Below are positions 3,935 to 10,603 of a stretch of 19,461 bases of DNA, piece after piece; positions within the stretch are counted from its first letter, which is position 1; every line of letters starts with the position of its first letter. Both the position numbers and the translations under genes were made by a program. The notes under the pieces were generated by a model. The model made no database searches, had not been told where the DNA came from, and saw only the letters and a program-made list of their open reading frames with translations. The stretch is from a virus (Duplodnaviria > Heunggongvirae > Uroviricota > Caudoviricetes), in the IMG/VR virus record IMGVR_UViG_2671180427_000015, positions 1 through 19,461 of that record. One strand, 5' to 3'.

Positions 3935-4458
3935 GCAGCCCTCCTGACGCCCTGCCCGATCGCCATCAATGCCGCTTTGGATACGGTAGTAAACATCCGT
4001 CGAGGACTGATGAACGGTCGCCAAATCAGCAGCATGGAGCCTTTGCTGTTTCCCTTCTTCTCCAGCCCTGTCGATGGTTCGATAAAATTAATCCGTCCAT
4101 CAGTGATAATACGAACTTCGTCAACACTCTCCAGAGCCTTGCTGAACCATCCGACAGACATATCCTCTGGCACAAGCATCACTACCGTCTGTCGCTGTTG
4201 TATACACTGCTCAGCGGCTTTTTCCACCCACGGCCTGATATTGCTGTACGGTGGGTTATTCCAGATTGCACCGTGGCTTACCCACTCAGAATTGAGCGCG
4301 TCGTCGTCCTCAGTTAGCCAGTGAGCGCACAGAGCGTTTTTGTCGCTCGCTGCCGAATCCAGCCAGAATCCAAACTCAATATCCAGTGCATCAAAAAGCC
4401 AAAGCGGCGTTTGCCAGCAGTCCTTGTCGTGTGCTGGCGTATTTGATTTGATAGTCAT
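3931..4458 (-). CDS. Orphan phage Dam-like DNA N6-adenine methyltransferase (occupies the lambda ninC/ninD position)
   Basis: Translation contains the N6-adenine MTase catalytic motif NPPY ([10 protein letters not shown]) and a WQTPxxLF-type N-terminal motif; start at ATG 4456..4458 in an ATGA overlap with the ninB stop. Confidence 0.7.
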
Positions 4459-5957: not shown

Positions 5958-6853
5958 AAATCCACCCCGTAAATCCAGTCAGTGTTTGTCAGGTCGAGTT
6001 TTGGTTTGCAGGCTGTCACGCCTGCCTGTTGCTTGTTACGGTTGATTTCGAGCTGGGTCCACTTGTCGCGGAGTTTGGCCGGGCTCAGCACGTTACCGGA
6101 CCAGAAGTTGTCCTGGCATGCCCAGCGGAACAGTACACACATGTCGCGATGGTTACGTCCGTCACGTTCACGCATCAGGCGGATATCGTTAGCCCACCCT
6201 GCAAAATTCGGTTTTCTGGCTGATGGCGCGATGGTCTTCACCATGTCAAACATCCACTCTGCGGCGGTCAGATCTTCTGCTGTCCCCCACCTGCTGCCGC
6301 TCTGAATTGCAGCATCTGGTTTCTCCACAGAAAGATCGTTTTCTGGCTGGTCAGAGGATTCGCCTGAATTCTCTGACGAATAATCTTTTCTTTTTTCTTT
6401 TGTAATAGTGTCTTTTGTGTCCCCCTGTTTTGAGGGATAGCAATCCCTCAATTTGAGGGATGTTTTATCCCTCGTTTTAGGGGATTTTCCCTCGTTTTGA
6501 GGGATACACCATTCTGAGATGTTTTTATTTGGTCCAAACATGCCGCCTTGCTGCTTGATAATATTCATTCTGACGAGTTCTAACTTGGCTTCATTGCACC
6601 GTTTGACGGGTAACTTTGTAATCTCGCTAAGTTGAGAATCGGTGATTCTGTCCATTGGTTTATTCCACCCATAGGTTTTACGCAGAATGGCAAGCAGCAC
6701 TTTAAACTGTCGCTTGGTCAGATCTGCGCCTGAATAAGCCTCAAGCAGCATATTTGATAGTCTGACGTAACCATCATCGAGATCTGCCACATTACGCTCC
6801 TGTTCGGCAAAGTTACCTCTGCCGAAGTTGAGTATTTTTGCTATATTTGTCAT
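5954..6853 (-). CDS. O: Replication initiator O
   Basis: 299-aa translation matches recalled lambda O; contains ori iterons internally. Confidence 0.9.
   Translation of the reverse strand: MTNIAKILNFGRGNFAEQERNVADLDDGYVRLSNMLLEAYSGADLTKRQFKVLLAILRKTYGWNKPMDRITDSQLSEITKLPVKRCNEAKLELVRMNIIKQQGGMFGPNKNISEWCIPQNEGKSPKTRDKTSLKLRDCYPSKQGDTKDTITKEKRKDYSSENSGESSDQPENDLSVEKPDAAIQSGSRWGTAEDLTAAEWMFDMVKTIAPSARKPNFAGWANDIRLMRERDGRNHRDMCVLFRWACQDNFWSGNVLSPAKLRDKWTQLEINRNKQQAGVTACKPKLDLTNTDWIYGVDL
6379..6506. repeat. Origin of replication (ori lambda type): four iterons plus adjacent AT-rich segment inside the O gene
   Basis: Four tandem ~20-bp units each containing an inverted TCCCTC...GAGGGA pair between about 6418 and 6506, flanked at 6379..6417 by a T-rich stretch (TCTTTTCTTTTTTCTTTTGTAATAG). 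Confidence 0.8.
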
Positions 6854-6885
6854 AATGACTCCTGTGGATTGATCCAGTAATTCCC

Positions 6886-7182
6886 TCAGAATTGCATATC
6901 AATTTGCTTAAAATCCTCGGTGGCAGCCGGGGATTTTTTCTTTGTGATTTCATCAAGCGCATACTTAAAAGCCCTGCTAATCGGACTGATGTCTGATGCC
7001 ATTCCGAAAGCACACAAGACCGAAGCAATAAATCTCCAGTCCGTTCTGCTTATCTTCGATTCATGACAGCCAATCATCTTTGCCAAACCGCGCTGTGTAA
7101 GCGTTGATAGGTTGATGAGTAAATCTGTTTCTGCGCGATCAACGTCACGCTGTGATAGTTTGCTGTAACTTGTTCGTTCCAT
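6886..7182 (-). CDS. CII-family lysogeny transcriptional activator (not the lambda allele)
   Basis: 98 aa; C-terminal ...KKKSPAATEDFKQIDMQF resembles lambda CII C-terminus (...KKRPAATERSEQIQMEF); located directly downstream of cro and nutR. Confidence 0.7.
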   Translation of the reverse strand: MERTSYSKLSQRDVDRAETDLLINLSTLTQRGLAKMIGCHESKISRTDWRFIASVLCAFGMASDISPISRAFKYALDEITKKKSPAATEDFKQIDMQF

Positions 7183-7268
7183 TTCTTAATATTTCCAATA
7201 GTGAATTGTTAGTTGACAGGTATGCGTGGAAACGCATATGGCCTTAGTTGGTCAGATATCTTGGGACT

Positions 7269-7313
7269 CGCTTTTCAGCGACGTAGGACGAATGTCCGTT
7301 GTTACAAAGAGCG
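7269..7313 (-). promoter_or_regulatory. nutR-like N-utilisation site (boxA plus boxB hairpin)
   Basis: Minus strand reads CGCTCTTTGTAACAA (boxA-like) then, 18 nt later, CGCTGAAAAGCG (short stem with GAAAA-containing loop), between cro and cII. Confidence 0.5.
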
Positions 7314-7323
7314 GCTCCGCTTA

Positions 7324-7539
7324 TTAAGCGGCTTTGTGTTCCGGCGGGAACACGTCATCAAGACTTACTTTTGCGCCTAACTTGTTTAGGCACGCAACAA
7401 GAGCACGGCATGTTTTAAGGTCTGGGAAGCGACGACCAGATTCCCAATGTCCGATAGCTCCCTGTGTGCATCCAACTGCTTTAGCAAGTTTCGTTTGAGA
7501 GATATTCAGTGACTCTCGATATTTTCGTAGGTTGCTCAT
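7324..7539 (-). CDS. cro: Cro-like HTH repressor (not the lambda allele)
   Basis: 71 aa from internal Met (MSNLRKYRESLNISQTKLAKAVGCTQGAIGHW...) with GGAGGA Shine-Dalgarno at 7543..7548; divergent from cI across an operator region. The 128-aa track ORF would overlap the operators and cI. Confidence 0.75.
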   Translation of the reverse strand: MSNLRKYRESLNISQTKLAKAVGCTQGAIGHWESGRRFPDLKTCRALVACLNKLGAKVSLDDVFPPEHKAA

Positions 7540-7570
7540 ATGTCCTCCGTAGTAACCACGAATAAAAAAA

Positions 7571-7639
7571 TACAATATGTACTCACCAAACACAAGTAAA
7601 AATACATATTGTGCATGGATGGTTCCAGTACAGAGCGTA
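7571..7639. promoter_or_regulatory. Right operator/promoter region (candidate OR sites with divergent pR and pRM)
   Basis: Three related 11-bp elements of form TAC-N5-GT(A/G): TACAATATGTA (7571..7581), TACATATTGTG (7603..7613), TACAGAGCGTA (7629..7639), lying between divergent cro and cI starts. Confidence 0.5.
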
Positions 7640-7656
7640 ATAATAAGGATATGAAA

Positions 7657-8310
7657 ATGAAATGGTATGAACTGGCTAGATCCAGAATGAAAGAGCTCGG
7701 CATAACTCAAGAGAAGTTAGCCGAAGAGCTAGGTATGACGCAGGGTGGAATTGGACACTGGTTGCGCGGATCTCGTCATCCATCTCTTAGTGATATTGGT
7801 GTGGTGTTTAAATACCTTGGTATTGATAACATATCATTCAACCACGACGGGACATTTTCACCTGTTGGCGAATACTCATCGGCCCCAGTTAAAAAACAAT
7901 ATGAGTACCCTGTTTTTTCTCATGTTCAGGCTGGGATGTTCTCTCCAGAACTCAGAACCTTTACCAAAGGCGATGCGGAGAGATTGGTAGGCACAACCAA
8001 AAAAGCCAGTGACTCTGCATTCTGGCTTGAGGTTGAAGGTAACTCAATGACCGCACCAACAGGTTCCAAACCTAGTTTTCCTGACGGGATGTTAATTCTG
8101 GTTGACCCTGAGCAAGCTGTTGAGCCCGGCGATTTCTGCATAGCCAGACTTGGTGGTGATGAATTTACCTTCAAGAAACTGATCAGGGATAGCGGTCAGG
8201 TGTTTCTACAGCCACTAAACCCACAATACCCAATGATCCCATGCAATGAGAGTTGTTCCGTTGTTGGGAAAGTTATCGCTAGTCAGTGGCCTGAAGAGAC
8301 GTTTGGGTGA
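7657..8310 (+). CDS. cI: CI prophage repressor, mosaic: non-lambda N-terminal HTH domain fused to lambda-type S24 (LexA-like) C-terminal domain
   Basis: C-terminal ~130 aa ([19 protein letters not shown]...EVEGNSM...FKKL...[12 protein letters not shown]) matches recalled lambda CI; N-terminal ~85 aa is unrelated to lambda CI. Start placed at ATG 7657 (AAGGA 7 nt upstream); the track ORF starts at 7609. Confidence 0.85.
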
Positions 8311-8380
8311 TGAAGGGCTAAATGTCTCCTAATAAAAACAGCAATCATTTGAAATTATTAATAATTATAGAGGTTTAGTC

Positions 8381-9379
8381 TTGGAAATCAGCACGGCGGT
8401 TATTCATTCCGAAGAAGATGCTTTGCGTTTTGTTGAGATGTACATCGCTGGGCAAGATCTTCCTGATGGAATATCATTTGAAGGGTGGCCTAACTTAACC
8501 TTCCGTCTTACTGGTGACAAATTTCATGGCAGTTTGACTCCTTCTGTCATGAAGGGTTTTGTTGAAATGCAGGCCCAAATAAACCGAGCTTATGCATTGT
8601 TAAAGTACGGAGTTCCTGACCCAAGAAAGCTTTCAAAAGAAGAGAAGGAAGCTATCGAAATTCAGGTGAATGTTGAGAATGGCTCGTCCTTGATAGAAGT
8701 TAATATGGATGGGTTCATGGGTGAGGTTATACAAACTGCGGTGAGTAAAGTGGGCCCTCAAGAGATCGTTATTACAGTTTTAGGGGTCGCTCTTATATGG
8801 GGCGGCGTCGTCCTATTCAAAAAATACCTAGAAGACCGCAAAGAGATTCGCATGGCAGAAGTAAAAAGCGAGTCTGAGCGTGAACACCTTGCGACCATGC
8901 GCTTCATGTCTGAGCAGGAAACAAAACGAAGTGAATTATTGACTCAGATTATTAGCGAAAAACCCAAGCTAGACAACATGGAAAGACTTGCTCATGACGC
9001 AAAAACCGACATAGTTAAATCATTTGTCAAGGCTGATACAGCTCAGATTGATGGCGTTGTATTGGATGCAGATCTATCCAAAACCCTCACTACAAATGCA
9101 AGGCGGAAATCAATGGAGATCCGCCTTGATGGAAATTATCGCATTGAAAAGGTTGACTCCACTGATCCAGAGAGCTTCAAAGTGCAAGTGAGAAATGTTG
9201 ATTCCGATCTAAGAATATCGTGCATAGTACAAGATGTTTTTCTCGACGCATCCGAGCATAAAAAAGCTCTTCAGCAAGCTGAGTGGGATAGAAAACCAGT
9301 TCATTTGTCAATCAACGCAAAAGAACTAGATGGTGAAATAAAGTCCGCGATAATACTTTATGTCAAAGAGATAACATAA
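8381..9379 (+). CDS. Immunity-region cargo protein of unknown function with one central hydrophobic helix (in the position lambda uses for rexA-rexB)
   Basis: 332-aa ORF with TTG start 7 nt after AGAGG; AT-rich; 70 nt downstream of cI on the same strand and followed by an intrinsic terminator; hydrophobic segment IVITVLGVALIWGGVVLF mid-protein; no similarity to RexA/RexB that I can recognise. Confidence 0.6.
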   Translation: MEISTAVIHSEEDALRFVEMYIAGQDLPDGISFEGWPNLTFRLTGDKFHGSLTPSVMKGFVEMQAQINRAYALLKYGVPDPRKLSKEEKEAIEIQVNVENGSSLIEVNMDGFMGEVIQTAVSKVGPQEIVITVLGVALIWGGVVLFKKYLEDRKEIRMAEVKSESEREHLATMRFMSEQETKRSELLTQIISEKPKLDNMERLAHDAKTDIVKSFVKADTAQIDGVVLDADLSKTLTTNARRKSMEIRLDGNYRIEKVDSTDPESFKVQVRNVDSDLRISCIVQDVFLDASEHKKALQQAEWDRKPVHLSINAKELDGEIKSAIILYVKEIT

Positions 9380-9386
9380 TCCTCAT

Positions 9387-9412
9387 CCCGGCCTCAGCGC
9401 CGGGTTTTCTTT
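9387..9412 (+). terminator. Intrinsic terminator ending the cI-cargo transcription unit
   Basis: CCCGGC-CTCAGC-GCCGGG hairpin followed by TTTTCTTT, 8 nt after the ORF stop. Confidence 0.6.
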
Positions 9413-9601
9413 GCCTCACGATCGCTTCACCTAAAAACACATAACCAATTGTATTTATTTGAAAATAAATAGATACAACTCACTAAACCACGCAATTCTG
9501 ATCTCTCCTTACATCGCCGAGGCAATACACCCATGCTAAAAAACAATACTATTAAATACAAAGCGTTGTAAAAAACCACCTCGTTTTAAGAACAAATTGT
9601 A

Positions 9602-9630
9602 TTGATAAAGCAAAATACATATCGTACTAT
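9602..9630 (+). promoter_or_regulatory. pL-like promoter with overlapping operator
   Basis: TTGATA -17 nt- TACTAT; the element TACATATCGTA (9616..9626) matches the OR-type TAC-N5-GTA sites and overlaps the spacer/-10. Confidence 0.45.
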
Positions 9631-9676
9631 TTAACCATCAGCAGGACGCTGGAAGCCAAACGGAACAAACTGGCAG

Positions 9677-9722
9677 GCTCTTTAAACAACGTCGAACTCT
9701 CGACTACGTGGCTGAAAAGCCA
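9677..9722 (+). promoter_or_regulatory. nutL-like site (boxA plus boxB hairpin)
   Basis: GCTCTTTAAACAA (boxA-like) followed 19 nt later by TGGCTGAAAAGCCA (4-bp stem, TGAAAA loop), upstream of N. Confidence 0.5.
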
Positions 9723-9819
9723 GATCACCCAACCACATGAGCTGTGGGATGCAATGCCGAAGCAACCGTCTAGGAGTAGCTTCGAGATTGCATCGCCAAA
9801 GTTTATTCGGGAGGAATCT

Positions 9820-10092
9820 ATGTCCAGAAAAACAGAATTTAAAGGCACCGCAGCTTCTCGCCGTAGAGCTCGTCGCGCAAATCTGCAAAGTCAGGAGGCG
9901 ATTAGCTCCGACAAACTACACAGGCCAACCCCCTCACGAGTGGTCTTGCAATGCAAACGCAAACCAGCAATGAGAGCAGAAGTAATAACACTGACAACGT
10001 TGACCAGAAAATATGAAGGCTCAACTTGTCTTCCAAATGTAGCTCTTTACGCGGCAGGCTACAGGAAATCAAAACAACTGACAGCAAGGTGA
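9820..10092 (+). CDS. N: N-like transcription antiterminator (arginine-rich motif; not lambda N)
   Basis: 90 aa from ATG 9820 (GGGAGG upstream); N-terminal arginine-rich motif GTAASRRRARRANLQ; first gene after pL/nutL. C-terminus resembles what I recall of the P22 gene 24 product, but that recollection is unverified. Confidence 0.7.
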   Translation: MSRKTEFKGTAASRRRARRANLQSQEAISSDKLHRPTPSRVVLQCKRKPAMRAEVITLTTLTRKYEGSTCLPNVALYAAGYRKSKQLTAR

Positions 10093-10150
10093 CTTGTGTT
10101 GATCGCCAGAAAATGAAATTAGGCATCAAACCACTTATTTGAGGTGATAT

Positions 10151-10237
10151 ATGGAAGAAGAATTTGAAGAGTTCGAAGAGCATCCTCAGGATGTGATGGA
10201 ACAATACCAGGACTATCCTTATGACTACGACTATTGA
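10151..10237 (+). CDS. Small acidic protein, lambda orf28-like
   Basis: 28 codons (MEEEFEEFEEHPQDVMEQYQDYPYDYDY) with GAGGTG Shine-Dalgarno; overlaps the ral start as lambda orf28 does. Confidence 0.5.
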   Translation: MEEEFEEFEEHPQDVMEQYQDYPYDYDY

Positions 10238-10445
10238 TAAAAATCAATGGTGTGGACAATTCAAGCGATGCAATGGATGCAAGCTGCAATCGGAATGCAT
10301 GGTTAAGCCTGAAGAAATGTTTCCTGTAATGGAAGATGGGAAATATGTCGATAAATGGGCAATACGAACGACGGCAATGATTGCCAGAGAACTTGGTAAA
10401 CAGAACAACAAGGCTGCCTGGTGGTGGCCTTTATTTTTGGCATAA
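10221..10445 (+). CDS. ral: Ral restriction-alleviation protein
   Basis: First 66 aa match recalled lambda Ral (MTTTIDKNQWCGQFKRCNGCKLQSECM...); this ORF reads on for 8 more codons (WWWPLFLA) before the stop. Confidence 0.8.
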   Translation: MTTTIDKNQWCGQFKRCNGCKLQSECMVKPEEMFPVMEDGKYVDKWAIRTTAMIARELGKQNNKAAWWWPLFLA

Positions 10446-10603
10446 ACAACAGAATAAACACTGCACTGTGTATTCATTCCAACAAGTGAATACACGGAGC
10501 AATGTCGCTCGTAACCAAACAGGAGCCGACTTGTTCTGATTATTGGAAATCTTCTTTGCCCTCCAATATGAGGGCGATTTTTTATCTGTGAGGATATGAA
10601 CAG

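Follow-up and report, generated by a model that had tools for sequence, protein, structure and literature searches.

A probable N-dependent antitermination module of the VT2-Sakai type, with predicted GNRA-tetraloop boxB hairpins, in a lambda-like prophage

Introduction

Among lambdoid phages, the module presented here is best compared with the N/nut systems of lambda, phage 21, P22, H-19B/933W, and VT2-Sakai. The boxB hairpin of lambda carries a pentaloop (GAAGA or GAAAA) on a U-A-closed, GNRA-type fold, and the fourth base of the loop is extruded. This extruded base is said to be required for NusA recognition. Binding of lambda N depends on the GNRA-like fold and on the U-A pair (PMC12027372), and the stretch that separates boxA from boxB, in which there is no hairpin, was given as 9 nt at nutR and 8 nt at nutL (PMC2724277 Table 1). 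In P22 the boxB loop (PDB 1A4T) is the pentaloop GACAA, whose looped-out C contacts Arg11 and His7 of the N peptide, and the boxB of phage 21 is a hexaloop (PMC12550061). For H-19B two hairpins were reported at nutR, and residues R3, R15 and R18 of its N protein were found to be required for nut-dependent antitermination (PMC3526286); the L108F change in the same protein suppresses mutants of the RNA polymerase β′ subunit (PMC4499122). The boxA of H-19B reads GCUAUUUU at nutR and none is recognisable at nutL. BoxA, NusB and S10 are reported to be dispensable in this phage, and the H-19B-type spacer hairpin reportedly has the role of a “reducer.”

The window, i.e., the whole stretch of 19,461 nucleotides that was analysed (IMG/VR record IMGVR_UViG_2671180427_000015), shares ~97% identity with lambda across 56% of its length, with phage 2B8 as the best match, thus the immunity region and the N module considered below reside in a lambda-like genome. 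The elements at and around positions 7269–9722 very probably make up a module for N-dependent transcription antitermination, of the VT2-Sakai (Stx phage) type, in a lambdoid prophage. Judged by sequence identity, this N/nutL/nutR module is one already known and annotated in VT2-Sakai-type Shiga-toxin phages. What the comparison of relatives adds to the annotation is that the length of the boxB loop tracks the arginine-rich motif of N and not the remainder of the protein.

Organisation and Identity of the Module

The elements of the module are collected in Table 1. A first-pass annotation had proposed two nut sites, and both were found where it had placed them, on the transcribed strands, one after pL and the other after cro. 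The nutL and nutR regions share 97–98% identity over 166–241 nt with the parts of AP000422 where nutL and nutR are annotated, the pL promoter has its counterpart by alignment in the “putative major leftward promoter” of VT2-Sakai (AP000422), and the putative tR1 region aligns with a feature named “putative rho dependent terminator for pR transcript.” The boxA of nutR is the same as in VT2-Sakai, where the site bears the name “putative N-utilization rightward,” and cro takes the same position as in that phage.

Table 1. Elements of the N/nut module and its surroundings in the window (arrows give the direction of minus-strand elements)
Feature	Position	Strand	Sequence, remarks and basis
putative rho-dependent tR1 region	7213..7238	-	alignment to AP000422 feature
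nutR boxB	7281->7268	-	UCGCU-GAAA-AGCGA
nutR UACG	7285->7282	-	sequence
nutR spacer hairpin	7298->7287	-	GGAC-AUUC-GUCC; fold
nutR boxA	7313->7302	-	CGCUCUUUGUAA; sequence; starts 13 nt past cro stop codon
cro, first gene of pR transcript, upstream of nutR	7327..7542	-	Pfam HTH_3, 1.7e-12
pL promoter	9602..9630	+	TTGATA-17-TACTAT; promoter scan
nutL boxA	9676-9689	+	GGCUCUUUAAACAA; sequence; conserved in related IMG/VR loci
nutL spacer hairpin (“reducer”-type)	9691-9704	+	GUCGA-ACUC-UCGAC; folds, stem covariation
nutL UACG	9705-9708	+	sequence
nutL boxB	9709-9722	+	UGGCU-GAAA-AGCCA; 5-bp stem, GNRA tetraloop
long N-leader hairpin, nutL to N ribosome-binding site	9737..9808 (approximate)	+	fold
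N gene	9820..10092	+	90 aa; ORF list; GGGAGG few bases upstream of ATG
terminator-like hairpin and T-run downstream of N, pL transcript	10410..10431	+	terminator scan
second terminator-like hairpin and T-run, pL transcript	10556..10577	+	terminator scan

The likeness to VT2-Sakai (Sp5) and the Stx1-converting phage (AP000422, AP005153) is close: N is 100% identical, the VT2-Sakai nutR is identical to that of the window over boxA, spacer hairpin and boxB, its nutL is the same apart from a single additional A in the loop of the spacer hairpin, and the gene orders pL-nutL-N and cro-nutR-tR1-cII are common to both. The phage backbones differ, that of the window being lambda-like, and between cI and pL the window has a 332-aa ORF in the place of H0093 and H0092 of VT2-Sakai. 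An N 100% identical to that of the window, of the VT2-Sakai type, is present in 47 phage records, and the nutL-N module occurs in 824 out of 5426 complete E. coli genomes (~15%); a scan of genome contigs yielded no more than 10 loci, of which two or three are probably contamination. In the literature searched, no functional or structural study of a tetraloop boxB or of Sakai-type N was found, and an Rfam scan of positions 6800–10200 (E ≤ 10) returned weak matches only, far below gathering scores and none of them at a nut site.

The N gene lies ~190 nt downstream of pL. The leader between them folds at −68.5 kcal/mol (9640–9830, z −4.58). The lambda N leader holds an RNase III hairpin, and the long N-leader hairpin of the window may have, by analogy, a similar role. 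The two terminator-like sites on the pL transcript are candidate targets of antitermination.

The N Protein

The first-pass annotation described an SRRRARRANLQ motif and a C-terminal part unlike that of lambda N, and proposed that the protein might combine lambda-like RNA specificity with a different RNA polymerase/NusA-interaction region. Both described features are present (residues 13–23, within an arginine-rich motif of about residues 9–26, and the C-terminal CLPNVALYAAGYRKSKQLTAR, residues 70–90), yet the protein is not a new hybrid, since it equals VT2-Sakai N at 100% identity and matches Pfam PF25694 (N_peptide) over residues 1–90 (profile positions 5–100 of 100), i.e., it aligns end to end with one known type of N, an outcome that had been named beforehand as contradicting the proposal. 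This match scored 111.3 bits against a gathering cutoff of 27.9 (3.4e-32) and was the only one in the Pfam search at E ≤ 0.1; all of the database homologues of N (106/106) carry PF25694, and N also matches phrog_271, “anti-termination protein N-like.” The search of PDB sequences with N gave no match, even at E ≤ 10.

The protein is not lambda N, as had been claimed, and its N-terminal two thirds are distantly lambda-like: BLASTP aligns 63 columns with lambda N at 35% identity (E 4e-5). A different RNA polymerase-binding region had been suspected too, and the C-terminal part indeed belongs to a class other than that of lambda, whose C-terminus ..GRQKIKGKSIPLI is replaced. Just past the N stop codon there is an out-of-frame remnant of a lambda-type C-terminus (..GRQKIKGKSIPLI).

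The last 20 residues of N are identical to the C-terminus of H-19B N (residues 70–90 correspond to H-19B 107–127), and the RNA polymerase-binding motif CLPxVAxYAAGxRKSKQxTAR is conserved, so that the H-19B residue L108 corresponds to L71 of the window N. The required arginines R3, R15 and R18 are conserved with the same numbering. Both proteins, and that of 933W, belong to the same Pfam family, but H-19B N is 127 aa long and only 41% identical to the 90-aa protein of the window, in which the middle part is 37 residues shorter, and its motif reads RRRERLKAKAL against RRRARRANLQ. In the case of P22, N (gp24) has the C-terminal module LPxVALYAAGxRKSKQxTAR in common with the window N, whereas its middle part is unrelated.

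The nut Sites

Each nut site consists of a near-consensus boxA, a spacer hairpin, UACG and boxB. The boxA and short hairpin per site described earlier were thus confirmed, the hairpin being a boxB with a 5-bp stem. The boxA of nutL contains GCUCUUUA, which matches the rrn boxA, UGCUCUUUA (PMC2724277), and that of nutR reads GCUCUUUG; P22 also has a boxA of the consensus type, and H-19B differs from the window in this respect. The loop, read at first as GAAAA like in lambda, turned out to be a U-A-closed GAAA tetraloop, with four A's against lambda's five. ViennaRNA folds each boxB hairpin alone at −6.5 kcal/mol into a 5-bp stem and a 4-nt loop, and both nutL hairpins persist within the fold of the 191-nt pL leader; in a 51-nt context an alternative is predicted, in which the nutL boxA pairs with the loop and 3′ arm of boxB.

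The distance from boxA to boxB was rightly noted to be longer than in lambda, but it amounts to 24 nt (nutR) and 25 nt (nutL) when measured from an 8-nt boxA to the boxB stem, the earlier figure of 18–19 nt being consistent with a boxA defined as longer. What extends the spacer is a second hairpin, 12 nt (nutR) or 14 nt (nutL) long, absent from the earlier description and from lambda and P22. The hairpin of nutR, GGAC-AUUC-GUCC, is found also in H-19B nutR, and the layout of a spacer hairpin followed by UACG is common to H-19B and the window. The boxB of H-19B nutR, UCGCU-GACAA-AGCGA, differs from that of the window only by the loop C; the GACAA pentaloop of H-19B-type NUT is absent, with GAAA at both window sites and at all recovered loci that have this type of N.

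Could these hairpins be chance structures, terminators or protein-binding sites in DNA? One minus-strand site (9704-9691), complementary to the nutL spacer hairpin, does score as terminator-like in the terminator scan, but it is simply this palindromic hairpin with the boxA complement after it. The whole window was scanned for a composite motif (GCTCTTT followed within 40 nt by a 5-bp GNRA hairpin), and it occurs twice, at the two canonical places on the transcribed strands and nowhere else; the mean over 300 dinucleotide-preserving shuffles was 0.037, and none of the shuffles (0/300) held two or more occurrences. In addition, the motif is conserved with compensatory changes in relatives from E. 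coli, Cronobacter and metagenomes, and the loop type follows the type of N motif (see below), which leaves such a reading a negligible probability.

Conservation and Covariation

Conservation was examined at 80 IMG/VR loci whose N is 98% identical or more, and in every nutL and nutR recovered there both the GAAA boxB and the spacer hairpin are retained. Scanning IMG/VR with N alone gave only near-identical proteins, and the diversity described below comes from the protein database and contig look-ups. Across 20 distinct sites compensatory changes were seen at seven of the nine stem pairs, with four of the five boxB pairs changed on both sides and three of the four spacer-stem pairs covarying. 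The covariation score was 0.646 against 0.158 in shuffles (0/500), and slid controls all gave ≤0.089; loops of unequal length were padded with N to share columns. The figure of 100% paired is inflated and partly given by construction, because sites were preselected for paired stems. The spacer stem was met in four families (GUCGA, GGAC, GAUUC, and GGUGA), and among relatives the nutL spacer hairpin keeps its stem and varies in its loop.

The loop-adjacent U-A pair is invariant in the tetraloop class and has no covariation support there, so the covariation is compatible also with a 4-bp stem and the loop UGAAAA, by analogy with the hexaloop of phage 21. This alternative is very improbable, since ViennaRNA gives the 5-bp stem with the 4-nt loop, the closing pair is C-G instead of U-A at the homologous GACAA sites that one locus (L091) carries, the loop variants are GAAA and GCAA only, as a GNRA loop permits, and lambda N requires the U-A closing pair (PMC12027372).

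Loop Length and the Arginine-Rich Motif

With the tetraloop as the preferred reading of boxB, loops were compared between N types. The N sequences with the motif RRRxRRAxLQ (eight distinct, 15 sites) are accompanied by GAAA or GCAA tetraloops only, and those with RRRERLK motifs (H-19B, 933W and P0027) by GACAA at both nut sites. GACAA was also found at nutL of P22, E. albertii and Lonsdalea, and the Winslowiella protein, in which a lambda-type motif with Trp18 (AEKQAAW) is joined to the Sakai-type C-terminal class, has GAAAA pentaloops at both sites. Two natural chimeras separate the motif from the body of N: P0046 combines the RRRxRRAxLQ motif with an H-19B body, P0027 the H-19B motif with a Sakai body, and in both the loop follows the motif, thus it is the motif, not the N body, with which the loop goes. 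One locus (L095; protein P0060, with a chimeric P22/H-19B motif) was left out of this comparison, no recognisable nut site having been found within 330 nt upstream of N or in the cro-cII interval.

The positions of Arg11 and His7 of P22 N correspond to Ala20 and Arg16 in the window N, and within the clade the Lys or Arg by which the looped-out C is contacted in P22 may be replaced by Ala20. A rule of Ala20 against Lys/Arg is not universal, Rosenbergiella being the exception. There GAAA tetraloops occur with a different motif, and an uncertain alignment places what may be a Lys at this position.

The pairing bears on the earlier proposal of lambda-like RNA specificity, which would make N interchangeable with lambda N at boxB, its RNA polymerase-binding end being foreign. 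The two systems share genetic logic and positions, the N-terminal two thirds of N align with lambda N (E 4e-5), the core has RRRxRRA and two Gln in common with it (9/18 identical), and boxB keeps the U-A closing pair and the loop letters G, A, A ... A of the lambda fold. However, the core is similarly close to phage 21 (10/18), which has a hexaloop boxB, every site of the class has a loop of 4 nt against 5 nt in lambda, so that the extruded fourth base is missing, and Trp18 of lambda is Glu26 in the window N, while the Winslowiella protein with AEKQAAW and the same C-terminal class does have GAAAA at both sites. The window has none of the features that mark lambda N proper (the Trp18 motif, a GNRNA pentaloop and the C-terminus ..GRQKIKGKSIPLI), and specificity of the lambda kind, as it was put forward, is unlikely.

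Instead, RRRxRRAxLQ together with a plain GNRA-tetraloop boxB could form a separate, uncharacterised N-boxB specificity class, a proposal to which, with its corollaries on origin and cross-activation, we give an even chance. Such a class may stand beside those of lambda (GNR[N]A), P22/H-19B (GA[C]AA) and phage 21 (hexaloop), and it may represent a minimal interaction, having no looped-out base to offer to N or NusA. The tetraloop may have originated by deletion of one loop base from a GACAA-type site, accompanied by an exchange of the motif module.

Proposed Mechanism

In the mechanism proposed here binding, host-factor needs and read-through are modelled by homology on H-19B, P22 and lambda. 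The pL transcript would bear nutL, the pR transcript, past cro, would bear nutR, and in both RNAs boxA, spacer hairpin, UACG and boxB with its U-A-closed GAAA tetraloop would follow each other in this order. The 90-aa N would be made from the pL transcript. BoxA presumably recruits NusB/S10, and NusA is presumably engaged by the single-stranded part of the spacer together with the middle part of N (HRPTPSR..KRKP), which is weakly similar to the NusA-binding stretch of lambda N. With 12–14 nt folded away in the spacer hairpin, the effective distance between boxA and boxB would be 11–12 nt, like the effective single-stranded spacer of P22. RNA polymerase would be contacted by the C-terminal 20 residues of N, and the complex would then pass tR1 and the terminators downstream of N.

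Implications

For genome annotation the consequences are small: the module is common, already named, and present in the Stx2 phage of O157:H7 Sakai. A natural pair of N peptide and plain GNRA-tetraloop boxB, along with the domain-swap chimeras, would give a simple comparison with the pentaloop complexes of lambda and P22, N-peptide/boxB pairs being standard tools for RNA tethering and models of RNA recognition by arginine-rich motifs. N governs delayed-early transcription, so ultimately the expression of Q and Shiga toxin, and it matters which N acts on which co-resident prophage. If the proposed class is true, the window N and the N of H-19B/933W would not cross-activate each other, despite identical nutR stems and spacers. 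Because the pairing of motif and loop length is strict, two non-interchangeable groups are predicted among Stx phages with like nutR.

Genomic Setting of the Module

The window represents a lambdoid prophage early region, oriented in reverse relative to the lambda map. Its backbone is ~97% identical to lambda across 56% of the window, the top single match is phage 2B8 (73% coverage), and the stretch from nutL through N is of the Shiga-toxin phage type: positions 9560–10100 share 95.9% identity with VT2-Sakai, the Stx1-converting phage, phage 1717 and many more, and among 5426 complete E. coli genomes 824 contain the nutL–N stretch. The 332-aa ORF sits between cI and pL, the interval occupied by rexAB in lambda, and this position suggests a lysogen-expressed gene, perhaps an exclusion gene. 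Its product has one hydrophobic segment and matches phrog_6191 (1e-137, function unknown), with no significant match in Pfam, NCBIfam or PADLOC; a terminator of its own follows.

Features of the module and its surroundings (window positions unless stated)
Feature	Sequence	Position	Strand
O, P			-
cII		6886–7182	-
nutR boxB	UCGCU-GAAA-AGCGA	7281–7268	-
nutR spacer hairpin	GGAC-AUUC-GUCC, then UACG	7298–7287	-
nutR boxA	CGCUCUUUGUAA	7313–7302	-
Palindrome	CCGCTTATTAAGCGG	7317–7331	
cro		7327–7542	-
cI		7654–8310	+
332-aa ORF		8381–9379	+
Terminator		9387–9404	
nutL boxA	GGCUCUUUAAACAA	9676–9689	+
nutL spacer hairpin	GUCGA-ACUC-UCGAC, then UACG	9691–9704	+
nutL boxB	UGGCU-GAAA-AGCCA	9709–9722	+
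N-leader hairpin		9737–9808	+
N (90-aa ORF)		9820–10092	+
Reading after N (other frame)	TCVDRQKMKLGIKPLI, then stop	10092–10142	+
Rosenbergiella boxBs	GCGCU-GAAA-AGUGC, GCACU-GAAA-AGUGC	L105 ~4032–4045 (+) and cro-side site	

Architecture of the nut Sites

Both nut sites, each with a boxA and a hairpin, lie where the first-pass annotation had placed them, nutR starting 13 nt downstream of the cro stop codon. Across 19.5 kb there are exactly two places, nutL and nutR, where GCTCTTT is followed within 40 nt by a 5-bp GNRA hairpin, whereas 300 dinucleotide shuffles contained on average 0.037 such composites and never two (0/300). When folded with ViennaRNA, each isolated boxB gave a hairpin with 5 bp in the stem and 4 nt in the loop (-6.5 kcal/mol), and the minimum-energy structure of the 191-nt pL leader (9640–9830, the N-leader hairpin included; z -4.58) retains both nutL hairpins. 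When nutL (9676–9722) is folded alone as 51 nt, the preferred structure pairs boxA (GGCUCUUU) with the loop and 3′ arm of boxB (AAAAGCC); this alternative still retains the spacer hairpin and is absent from the 191-nt fold.

The loop had been read as GAAAA-like, but it holds four A's versus five in lambda, and closure by the U-A pair makes it a GAAA tetraloop. The spacing is indeed longer than in lambda, although not 18–19 nt as proposed: counted from an 8-nt boxA it is 24–25 nt, against 8–9 nt in lambda (PMC2724277), because a second hairpin lies inside the spacer. This hairpin always starts with G after ACAA(C/U) and ends with C before (U/C)ACG, and its stems form four unrelated families (GUCGA, GGAC, GAUUC, GGUGA). 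Without it, 11–12 single-stranded nt separate boxA from boxB, likewise the distance in P22, which fits the 'reducer' idea reportedly put forward by Neely and Friedman in 2000.

Stem covariation was scored over 20 distinct nut sites, with loops padded with N to align stems by column. All 180 stem cells were paired, a figure inflated because sites were selected by requiring pairing; compensatory changes are unaffected by that choice, and both-sided changes were found in 7 of 9 stem pairs. The covariation score was 0.646, compared with 0.158 in shuffles (0/500) and at most 0.089 in slid controls with the 3′ partners moved 1–3 columns.

The palindrome covers the stop codon of cro and lies just before the nutR boxA. 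Many relatives with identical nutR carry GCATAAGTAACC.. in its place, so it is part of the cro module and not of nutR. The leader between nutL and the ribosome-binding site of N contains a long, highly stable hairpin, whose CCAAAG...CUUUGG flanks are conserved at the same position in relatives; the predicted structure recalls the lambda N-leader hairpin, which is processed by RNase III.

N Is a Known, Mosaic Protein

The 90-aa N matches Pfam PF25694 (N_peptide) over its full length (111 bits), and phrog_271 ('anti-termination protein N-like') is a further match. Its sequence shows 100% identity to the N annotated in VT2-Sakai, the Stx1-converting phage, 1717, 2851, YYZ-2008 and the PA series, with at least 99% identity in 47 phage records. 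In the VT2-Sakai record (AP000422) N is annotated as 'similar to bacteriophage 933W L0080 and H-19B N', and the features 'putative N-utilization leftward' and 'rightward' both map to the window nut sites; nutR is the same over boxA, hairpin and boxB, and the difference in nutL is a single A in the loop of the spacer hairpin. N therefore corresponds over its whole length to one known N type, an outcome that the first-pass annotation had itself named as refuting its proposal. The module is real and already known and annotated, and in all likelihood functional. The first-pass annotation is partly right about a mosaic N, its novelty does not stand, and the proposed lambda-type RNA specificity is probably wrong.

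Lambda N aligns weakly with the N-terminal two thirds (35% over 63 columns, E 4e-5), a stretch that takes in the part of lambda N that binds NusA. Of 18 residues, the arginine-rich core (GTAASRRRARRANLQSQE) shares 10 with phage 21, 9 with lambda, 7 with P22 and 6 with H-19B, and Glu replaces lambda Trp18. As had been noticed, the C-terminal part is unlike that of lambda N: the final 20 residues, LPNVALYAAGYRKSKQLTAR, are the same in H-19B N and close to the ends of P22 gp24 and HK140 N, whereas lambda and phage 21 have other ends (..GRQKIK..PLI). This end serves H-19B N as its RNA polymerase-binding domain and contains L108F, a suppressor of beta-prime mutants (PMC4499122); L108 aligns with window L71. 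H-19B N is 41% identical overall, the window N being 37 residues shorter in the middle, and R3, R15 and R18, whose mutations abolish nut-dependent antitermination in H-19B (PMC3526286), are conserved under the same numbers.

Among relatives, N is a mosaic protein in which three modules can be exchanged (arginine-rich motif, middle and C-terminus): P0046 (loci L089/L090) joins a Sakai motif to an H-19B body, P0027 (L091) an H-19B motif to a Sakai body, P0060 (L095) has a hybrid P22/H-19B motif, HK140 (L005) combines a motif of its own with the middle of phage 21 and the end of P22, and in Winslowiella (L104) a lambda motif is joined to a P22 end. The reading that overlaps the N stop codon by one base is a remnant of a phage 21/lambda-type C-terminus (..TCVGRQKIKLGSKPLI). 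The same remnant follows N in H-19B and 933W and is absent from P22, HK140, L006, L092 and L093; it looks like a recombination scar from C-terminal module exchange. In the genome collection, some contigs with lambdoid N genes of the E. coli type are listed under unrelated organisms: L098, L101 ('Segatella copri' MAG) and L099 (Xanthomonas pisi, 394 bp), the N of L098 being 98% identical to the window's. Most likely this is binning or assembly contamination.

The Arginine-Rich Motif Goes with the boxB Loop

The hairpins are conserved in related phages. Eighty IMG/VR loci with N at least 98% identical yielded 83 nutL and 80 nutR copies (window, VT2-Sakai and L006 included, some contigs partial), and the window boxB recurred in 83/83 and 80/80, respectively; the cro-proximal flank and spacer-hairpin loop vary. 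H-19B nutR, in which two hairpins were described (PMC3526286), has the same spacer hairpin and boxB stem, but its loop is GACAA, that of P22, and its boxA is degenerate.

The motif RRRxRRAxLQ is found in eight distinct N sequences (window/Sakai type, phiSTEC1589, Cronobacter turicensis and metagenome contigs), with GNRA tetraloops at 15/15 nut sites, GCAA at two and otherwise GAAA. GACAA accompanies the RRRERLK motif of H-19B, 933W and P0027 at nutL and nutR, and P22-type motifs (P22, E. albertii, Lonsdalea) at nutL, the sole site examined. The chimeras separate the motif from the remainder of N: P0046, with RRRxRRAxLQ and an H-19B middle and end, has GAAA loops, and P0027, with the H-19B motif and a Sakai-type middle and end, has GACAA loops. 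Winslowiella N, a lambda-type motif with Trp18 fused to a P22-type end, comes with GAAAA pentaloops at both nut sites; it is the hybrid that the first-pass annotation imagined, yet a protein distinct from the window N. A GAAA tetraloop is also found in the boxB of each nut site in a second lineage, Rosenbergiella gaditana, whose sites lack the spacer hairpin and whose lambda-like motif (..TARTRRDEKRKAKQMAF..) differs, with Phe at the Trp18 position.

The boxB loops known so far are pentaloops, or one hexaloop, that mimic a fold of GNRA type. Lambda N favours GNRNA loops whose fourth base is extruded, and it depends on closure by a U-A pair (PMC12027372), and in P22 the looped-out C of GACAA contacts peptide Arg11 and His7 (PMC12550061). 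The GAAA boxB would need no looped-out base. In N alignment A3 the counterpart of P22 Arg11 (full-length R24) is K20 in H-19B and A20 in the window; this position is Ala in 8/8 tetraloop-type motifs of the window clade and in lambda (A12), and every GACAA type has Lys or Arg there. The contact at residue 20 may have been lost along with the looped-out base, as a correlation only, to which Rosenbergiella may be an exception.

The window boxA is nearer to the rrn consensus, UGCUCUUUA, than is the lambda boxA, CGCUCUUA (PMC2724277). This nearness makes NusB/S10 involvement at the window nut sites plausible. H-19B, in contrast, is not known to depend on NusB/S10. For the window module, N–boxB binding, factor requirements and read-through are what we infer; a literature search found no experiment on the Sakai-type N subtype, and a PDB sequence search no related solved structure for N. 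The interest that is left lies in a natural and apparently never characterised class of GNRA-tetraloop boxB with a motif type of its own.
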